Positions 35,594 through 35,931 of a DNA stretch of 64,000 bases are shown here, one piece after another (the first letter of the stretch is position 1; every line of letters starts with the position of its first letter). Both the position numbers and the translations under genes were made by a program. The stretch covers positions 190-64,189 of the forward strand of contig CALUVI010000004.1 of the NCBI GenBank assembly GCA_944324185.1, in the 5' to 3' direction. The notes beneath the pieces were generated by a model, which was given only the letters and a program-made list of their open reading frames with translations, ran no database searches and was not told the origin of the DNA. This DNA is from Candidatus Gastranaerophilales bacterium. GTDB taxonomy: Bacteria > Cyanobacteriota > Vampirovibrionia > Gastranaerophilales > Gastranaerophilaceae.

Positions 35594-35792
35594 TAACATT
35601 TTATCTATTTTGTTATACACCCTGTATTGGCGGGGGTTTTAGACTATTATGCTTTTTGTTTATGTCAAAAAAATCCCCTGACTGGCTAATAAATTTTACA
35701 TTTGACTACTCGATTATTCGTGATATTATTAGTGTTAAGCAGATTGATTTTACTGCATTTGAATACCGCATAACAAAATAGATAAAATGTTA
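35594..35792. repeat. Perfect 23-bp inverted repeat (35594-35616 / 35770-35792), with a third partial copy at 35826-35841
   Basis: TAACATTTTATCTATTTTGTTAT vs ATAACAAAATAGATAAAATGTTA. Confidence 0.9.
35702..35729 (+). promoter_or_regulatory. Putative sigma70 promoter inside the inverted repeat, facing the glycan genes
   Basis: TTGACT-N16-TATTAT with TGn extended -10. Confidence 0.55.
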
Positions 35793-35931
35793 CGTTTGAT
35801 TAATAATTTTATTTACATTACTTTTTAGATAAAATGTTATGTTATAATTTAAAAGTAATACTGAAAAGAAAAGGGTTTAATATCACAAATGACTGGCATC
35901 TACGGAATAATGAATCAAAAAGGAGAGTTTA

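Follow-up and report, generated by a model that had tools for sequence, protein, structure and literature searches.

Does the short intergenic segment between two inverted repeats in front of a glycan locus of a gut melainabacterium change its orientation, and if so, what does it switch and with which enzyme? Gut Melainabacteria are uncultured relatives of cyanobacteria, and how they handle host immunity and phages is, to our knowledge, almost entirely unexplored. The segment lies in the window, i.e., the whole 64-kb stretch of DNA analyzed here, which corresponds to C4:190-64189 of a metagenome-assembled genome of Candidatus Gastranaerophilales (Melainabacteria; 1.97 Mb, 37% G+C, 67 contigs). 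A first-pass annotation of this window had read the repeats as the borders of an ON-oriented phase-variation switch, with three operator sites as the alternative.

The repeats enclose a candidate promoter

The two 23-nt arms of the inverted repeat, TAACATTTTATCTATTTTGTTAT and ATAACAAAATAGATAAAATGTTA, are 100% complementary and separated by 153 nt. With up to 3 mismatches allowed, the 23-mer matches only these two positions in the 64-kb window and none in 100 shuffles, in agreement with the perfect repeat described by the first-pass annotation, as is the TAACA-N12-TGTTA quasi-palindrome that it had read within each arm and that is present in both. Based on the architecture derived from 15 unique family sites (see below), site 1 can be read as 8-nt arms around a 6-nt asymmetric core (Table 1). 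Two partial copies accompany the pair. Site 3 had been annotated as a third, 16-bp copy; the exact match of 16 nt at 35826-35841 holds, but the element is really a full 22-nt site (35819-35840) with a degenerate left arm, reading TTACT for TAACA in the window, and other strains have the complete site (TAACATTTTAGATAAAATGTTA). A fourth partial copy, the outer half-site, had escaped the annotation and is invariant across all alleles and contexts. In the window strain the conserved left border of the module overlaps the final codons of the upstream 916-aa gene. A scan against Rfam gave no match at the switch, the single match in the window being a tRNA, and a DNA search in 60 relatives recovered flanking genes only, with no cross-species conservation of the intergenic switch.

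Table 1. Positions of the features of the switch, the adjoining glycan locus and the candidate recombinase genes (window coordinates unless a contig is given)
Feature	Position	Strand	Description
Conserved left border of switch module	35526..35593	+	~68 nt; identity among three unrelated upstream contexts starts here
Outer half-site ATAACAAAATA	35576-35586	+	Left arm and core start of site 2; 7 nt before site 1
Site 1, left inverted repeat	35594..35616	+	TAACATTT-TATCTA-TTTTGTTA plus T
Invertible segment	35617..35769	.	153 bp; window copy ON (promoter towards GT2)
Candidate promoter P1	35702..35729	+	TTGACT 35702-35707, 16-nt spacer, TG 35721-35722, TATTAT 35724-35729
Site 2, right inverted repeat	35770..35792	+	Exact reverse complement of site 1
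Site 3, third copy	35819..35841	+	Core directed as in site 2; left arm degenerate
Candidate fixed promoter P2	35840..35848	+	Perfect extended -10 TGtTATAAT, outside segment, 84 nt before GT2 start codon
Head of the putatively controlled locus	35932..39974	+	Four genes, accompany the switch in all three contexts
GT2	35932-36792	+	First gene after the switch
NTP_transf_5 nucleotidyltransferase	36793-37986	+	
HPr-kinase-like protein with PqqD/RRE domain	37997-39523	+	
PqqD/RRE protein	39504-39974	+	
Remaining co-directional glycan locus	40479..52322	+	Gene content varies between strains
Recombinase copy	C59:6946-7488		Alone, directly upstream of UDP-glucose dehydrogenase gene
Recombinase copy	C11:1309-1851		In Mu-like prophage

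The promoter that had been proposed inside the segment, TTGACT-N16-TATTAT with an extended -10 (TTGACT-N16-TGaTATTAT), was located on the plus strand and points through site 2 at the GT2 gene starting at 35932. Against 1349 control intergenic windows from the same genome, a simple score places this candidate promoter, P1, in the top 2.7%. It is conserved in all alleles, except that three strains read TACCAT in place of TATTAT, and judged by its sequence P1 is presumably an active promoter. The lineage with the TACCAT box (L112, L121, and L127; ERZ28614052 and ERZ24773323) has its GT2 gene split into 165 plus 122 aa and its nucleotidyltransferase shortened to 321 aa; the head cassette may be decaying there while the switch stays ON.

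A second candidate promoter, P2, partly coincides with the right arm of site 3. Its perfect extended -10 has a chance expectation of about 1% in the GT2 leader and is invariant in all alleles. Because P2 lies outside the segment and is fixed, the GT2 genes are possibly transcribed in both orientations, and from the sequence the switch may add to transcription from P2 instead of strictly gating GT2.

A mosaic glycan locus

The four-gene head is separated from the rest of the glycan locus by a 500-bp gap rich in REP elements. Beyond this gap the genes are ordered GT2-HAD, GT2, GT8, radical SAM, GT2, FkbM methyltransferase, two unknowns, Caps_synth, and ABC exporter, and comparison of 39975-52322 of the window with L111-L119 reveals that the glycosyltransferases beyond the head differ between strains. 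Upstream of the switch, the window carries the gene of a 916-aa SdrD_B-like protein, the last of a five-gene operon. This is one of three unrelated upstream contexts, the others having a 73-aa gene plus an aldehyde dehydrogenase gene (context B) or a 352-aa gene. Together, the variable downstream genes and the three upstream contexts mark the glycan locus as mosaic and exchangeable.

The segment occurs in both orientations

Assemblies carrying the locus were gathered by exact-protein look-ups of the neighboring genes and of a spurious 55-aa open reading frame lying wholly inside the segment. Among 19 independent samples, the segment is ON in 13 (the window genome, ERZ28614382, ERR4096484, ERZ16268236, ERZ28614052, ERZ16268087, ERR10610621, GCA_949284625.1, ERZ28614264, ERZ24773281, ERZ24773323, ERZ24773417, and ERZ28613962) and exactly inverted, i.e., OFF, in 6 (ERZ16268129, ERZ21563861, ERZ16268211, ERZ24773514, ERZ24773510, and ERZ28613971). 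The breakpoints fall exactly at the repeats. In 6 assemblies the inversion breaks at site 1, and one of the OFF assemblies has a contig that stops at the repeat. The comparison of strains that the first-pass annotation had suggested thus returned both orientations, not one only, and its reading of the window copy as an invertible promoter in the ON state is supported.

The assembly with the OFF segment that was compared with the window over longer flanks (L017; ENA ERZ16268129) is identical to it at 600/600 positions on the left and 593/600 on the right, and its inner segment matches at 148/154 positions (96%) as the reverse complement vs 52% in the forward direction. All 7 right-flank differences within these 600 bp fall in 35793-35822, the 30-bp stretch separating site 2 from site 3. 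Most of the differences in the inner segment adjoin site 1; substitutions are thus concentrated along the borders of the recombination sites.

After flipping, the OFF alleles of L017, L113, and L115 show 0 mismatches in 153-154 nt to the ON allele of L117, and the OFF state is present in all three upstream contexts. An identical inner allele in both states and the OFF state in three contexts indicate recurrent inversion, not one old event, and the occurrence of the same allele in both states means that orientation is no lineage marker. The segment has been inverted repeatedly, as seen between samples. An assembly artifact was rejected as the source of the OFF state, given six independent assemblies from different pipelines with identical exact breakpoints.

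A family of paired sites in the genome

The whole genome was scanned for paired TNACN-N12-NGTNA motifs that match as inverted repeats with up to 2 mismatches and lie 80-320 nt apart. This search for further copies of the site, another of the checks proposed at first pass, yielded seven paired loci of the TAACA-N12-TGTTA type, on C3, C4, C7, C9, C11, C41, and C50, compared to 0 in 30 composition-preserving shuffles. At all seven loci the two sites of a pair form a perfect or 1-mismatch inverted repeat, asymmetric core included, and the cores differ between loci (TATCTA, TATACA, TCTATA, TGTACA, and TAACCA). The family follows one plan, with inverted 8-nt TAACAWWW arms around a 6-nt core that always has T first and A last. 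Judged by sequence, sites of tyrosine recombinases are built in this way, and operators would have no need of such a plan.

A strong outward sigma-70-type promoter with an extended -10 is found near one end in 4/8 of the enclosed segments vs 4.5% of controls (Mann-Whitney p=0.001). The neighbors of the family loci are surface-related: the C3 pair lies in a glycan locus that includes a pyruvyl-transferase-like gene, the C9 locus adjoins a MATE transporter gene, and the C50, C41, and C7 loci adjoin genes for large acidic or Gly-rich proteins. Orientation polymorphism was not found at three other family loci in consensus assemblies, with one orientation in 8/8 cases for C3, 4/4 for C50, and 5/5 for C9.

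The C3 locus (29184-29431; L099-L106) is a paralogous switch in another glycan locus and also has a third partial copy. In one assembly (L101; ERZ16268129), exactly the 110 bp that separate two directly repeated sites are missing, with the junction inside the repeat, as would be predicted for recombination between directly oriented sites of this type.

The switch before the MATE gene (C9:46360-46546; L143-L152) is present in 5/10 assemblies, one copy having a 60-nt insertion, and the other 5/10 have an NMN-transporter gene upstream instead. At C7:6876-7007, paired sites with the palindromic core TGTACA precede a very long open reading frame; this segment is without an internal sigma-70-type promoter and has a sigma-28-like -10 (GCCGATAT) on the minus strand. 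A nearly perfect inverted duplication of about 1.2 kb at C13:300-1480 (arms of 83, 48, 43, and 32 nt and more) contains TGTATATTTTGTTAC at its outer ends and may represent either a folded-back assembly or an invertible element of larger size. A generic inverted-repeat scan is dominated by a REP-like palindrome, AGTAGTGTGGAGCTTGCTCCACAA, and other repeat families on many contigs (e.g., C13, C5, C8, C15, and C3); none of these repeats is related to the switch sites.

Small tyrosine recombinases as candidate enzymes

The genome encodes five Phage_integrase-domain genes and one Resolvase-domain gene. As stated at first pass, there is no recombinase in the 64-kb window; the genomic copies lie elsewhere. 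Two of them are intact 180-aa tyrosine recombinases that consist of the catalytic domain only and are 68% identical to each other, and remnants are found besides (Table 1). The 180-aa protein scores 96.3 bits against Pfam Phage_integrase (PF00589; cutoff, 27.1), and its catalytic residues R40, the hairpin Lys, H128-x-x-R131, H154, and Y163 align with XerA 4a8e. The NCBIfam cutoffs for FimB/FimE are not reached (NF007371, 45.9 vs 222 bits; NF007370, 30.0 vs 221 bits), so that, to judge from its sequence, the protein would work like FimB/FimE but lies outside that family. No small serine recombinase of the Hin/Gin/Mpi type is encoded in the genome, the only Resolvase-domain protein being a 538-aa large serine recombinase on C23. 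This protein and a phage integrase (C25) were set aside as the enzyme, as were XerC/XerD-like proteins of full-length appearance (C22 and C8), none of them being associated with the sites.

The C11 copy is part of a Mu-like prophage, in which a transposase (phrog_310, 404 bits) and a MuB-like protein are found nearby, and a family-type pair of inverted repeats begins about 50 nt after its stop codon. Small recombinase, switch, and a LuxR-type HTH gene all lie within C11:1-6000 (L142) of this transposable prophage. Across metagenome-assembled genomes labeled as different bins or species (L025, L053, L058, and L070), the 142-bp switch segment shows 100% identity, suggesting that the element spreads horizontally.

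Relatives of the recombinase were confirmed in 164 cases in named genomes, nearly all of them Gastranaerophilales, and 37/41 species of the genus have 1 to 10 copies. In about 30 of the 80 relatives' loci examined, a pair of inverted repeats of the same architecture starts 40-60 nt after the recombinase stop codon. The exact TAACA arm variant is confined to 5 species, with 0 control hits, implying that arm sequences vary with the recombinase. Five sister species (G020, G013, G024, G015, and G004) show the order recombinase, IR-flanked segment of 129-188 bp, and GT2 homologue, the last with 40-67% amino acid identity to the focal GT2. A third site copy is not general in these GT2 cassettes of the sister species. 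In one of them, a diverged recombinase-like open reading frame (37% identity) is located between the switch and the GT2 homologue (L154; G013:C42:10300-13000). Orientation of the recombinase-linked segments was the same in 47 pairs and weakly opposite in 2, and the better of the opposite pairs (L094/L097) is too diverged to call (66% vs 59%). Among the 80 relatives' loci examined, no recombinase is closely orthologous to the C59 copy and neighbored by a UDP-glucose dehydrogenase gene.

Since no recombinase is linked to the switch and GT2 at the focal locus, the enzyme must act in trans. The earlier suggestion of an unlinked recombinase stands insofar as small tyrosine recombinases unlinked to the locus are present and sister species link such a gene to a GT2 switch; the identity of the enzyme is by association only. 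By this association, the 180-aa recombinase family is probably the switch enzyme, and either paralogue may be the one acting at the focal switch.

Proposed mechanism and alternative explanations

Taken together, we are largely confident that site-specific recombination flips the segment and that a promoter for the head of the glycan locus lies on it. Sites 1 and 2 would serve as tyrosine-recombinase-type sites, with TAACAWWW arms and the asymmetric core TATCTA. A 180-aa recombinase, encoded by the C59 or the prophage C11 copy, would synapse the two sites, exchange strands in the core, and flip the segment. In the ON state, P1 would read through site 2 into the GT2/nucleotidyltransferase/kinase-RRE/PqqD head; after flipping, it would read away from the head genes, leaving them OFF or reduced to the level set by P2. 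The predicted outcome is heritable, reversible heterogeneity in the surface glycan. We infer both the reversibility and rate of inversion within one clone and a role for the third site.

What this third site might do is hinted at by its distribution. A complete site 3 goes with 5 ON and 6 OFF assemblies and the degenerate, window-type site 3 with 7 ON and 0 OFF assemblies, with one further probable ON case beyond these 7; state is associated with the completeness of site 3 (Fisher's exact p=0.038), the samples being not phylogenetically independent. The window copy may, from its sequence, be ON-biased or locked, and free switching of this allele appears about as likely as not. An elaborated version of the switch would be a three-site, two-promoter device in which site 3 is an accessory or locking site, recombinase occupancy is needed to leave the ON state while repressing P2, the decayed site 3 of the window means locked ON, and the prophage recombinase could also flip host switches in trans; in this full form we regard it as improbable. 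One short OFF contig (L138; ERZ28613971, 818 nt) has the site between segment and spacer replaced by site-3 sequence, which gives a perfect 26-nt palindrome around a 21-bp spacer and leaves the site 1 and site 2 cores directly oriented. Such an arrangement is not derivable by conservative exchange within the core and may reflect gene conversion or an assembly artifact.

One rival explanation would be that the orientation differences are rare, unprogrammed events of homologous recombination that became fixed in strains, with no dedicated recombinase or regulatory role. It would fit the facts that the evidence for both orientations is all between samples, that several family loci occur in one orientation only, and that the window-type allele is always ON. 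Repeats of 23-28 bp, however, are very short substrates for RecA-type recombination, and the OFF state in three unrelated flank contexts, along with identical alleles, needs several independent inversions. Nor does it account for a site architecture common to sites beside recombinase genes in many species or for the enrichment of promoters inside the segments. We consider this explanation very unlikely.

It is equally unlikely that the switch is real but acts mainly the other way, with GT2 driven by P2. The invertible promoter would then run antisense to the operon of the 916-aa surface protein in the window strain and would be the sense promoter of the 73-aa and aldehyde dehydrogenase genes in context B. 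The invariant, perfect TGtTATAAT outside the segment is consistent with this direction of action, and in contexts B and C the left neighbors lie on the opposite strand, such that the OFF-state promoter points at them. On the other hand, these left neighbors vary while the switch is always found with the GT2 head cassette, the nearest left gene in context B is about 760 bp away, and the cassette of the sister species comprises recombinase, switch, and GT2, all of which argue against this direction of action.

The operator alternative, namely, that the repeats bind a dimeric transcription factor which loops or occludes the promoter region and that the inversions are incidental, would suit the dyad in every site, the three to four copies around two promoter-like elements, the overlap of site 3 with the TG of the fixed extended -10, and the existence of single sites (e.g., C11:13406), but we find it scarcely credible, as it does not need the exact inverted orientation of the asymmetric core seen at all seven loci, does not predict a clean inversion precisely at the boxes in 6/19 samples with the same alleles in both states, and leaves the conserved adjacency to a tyrosine recombinase gene unexplained. 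Repression by the recombinase itself through binding to its own sites is compatible with the inversion of a promoter by site-specific recombination.

Comparison with known systems

PhaseFinder and DeepInverton surveys of the gut (PMC11602134 and PMC11892184) describe, in their accessible text, invertons as intergenic IR-flanked segments that occur in both orientations near surface-modification genes, and the switch studied here resembles the surveyed elements, as described there, in all of these respects. The accessible text of the two surveys makes no mention of Cyanobacteria or Melainabacteria. Our literature search found no report of promoter invertons in Melainabacteria and one count only of an hsdS (restriction specificity) inverton. 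The mechanism is already known elsewhere and appears to be unpublished in Gastranaerophilales.

If the proposed mechanism is correct, recombinase-driven promoter switches before glycan, transporter, and large surface-protein genes would be lineage-wide in these bacteria, amounting to the same bet-hedging as in Bacteroides and enterobacteria, built here from a different and very small tyrosine recombinase. With the site consensus and the orientation-specific junctions, switch states should be readable from existing metagenomes. The 180-aa recombinase with its 22-nt sites is also a compact candidate tool for DNA inversion. Should the prophage recombinase indeed act in trans, a phage could reset the surface of its own host.

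Three known systems offer points of reference. In Bacteroides fragilis, capsular polysaccharide promoters are inverted by the global invertase Mpi, a small serine invertase. As in that species, several glycan loci here have putatively invertible promoters of a few hundred bp with related repeats and a recombinase encoded elsewhere; unlike Mpi, the candidate enzyme is a tyrosine recombinase. RecV of Clostridioides difficile is a full-length tyrosine recombinase that acts on the cwpV, flgB, and cmrRST switches, which have dissimilar repeats and some of which act after transcription initiation. The likeness lies in one tyrosine recombinase that would serve, in trans, several short segments upstream of surface-related genes, whereas the sites described here clearly belong to a single sequence family and the recombinase and switch remain a linked cassette in many relatives.

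The functionally closest system, by analogy, would be fimS of Escherichia coli, a 314-bp segment with 9-bp repeats that is flipped by FimB/FimE and controls type 1 fimbriae. FimB and FimE are tyrosine recombinases of about 180-200 aa without an N-terminal core-binding domain, and extra half-sites flank the fimS repeats. The size of the candidate enzyme (180 aa) fits the FimB/FimE-type layout, and adjacency of recombinase and switch is found at C11, in about 30/80 relatives, and in the five GT2 cassettes, and is absent at the focal switch. The present switch differs from fimS in its 23-28-nt dyad repeats, its 153-bp segment, the unlinked recombinase, the seven switches per genome, and the phylum in which it occurs; it shares with fimS a short invertible segment, a putative outward promoter for a surface structure, a candidate tyrosine recombinase reduced to its catalytic domain, and a flanking half-site.
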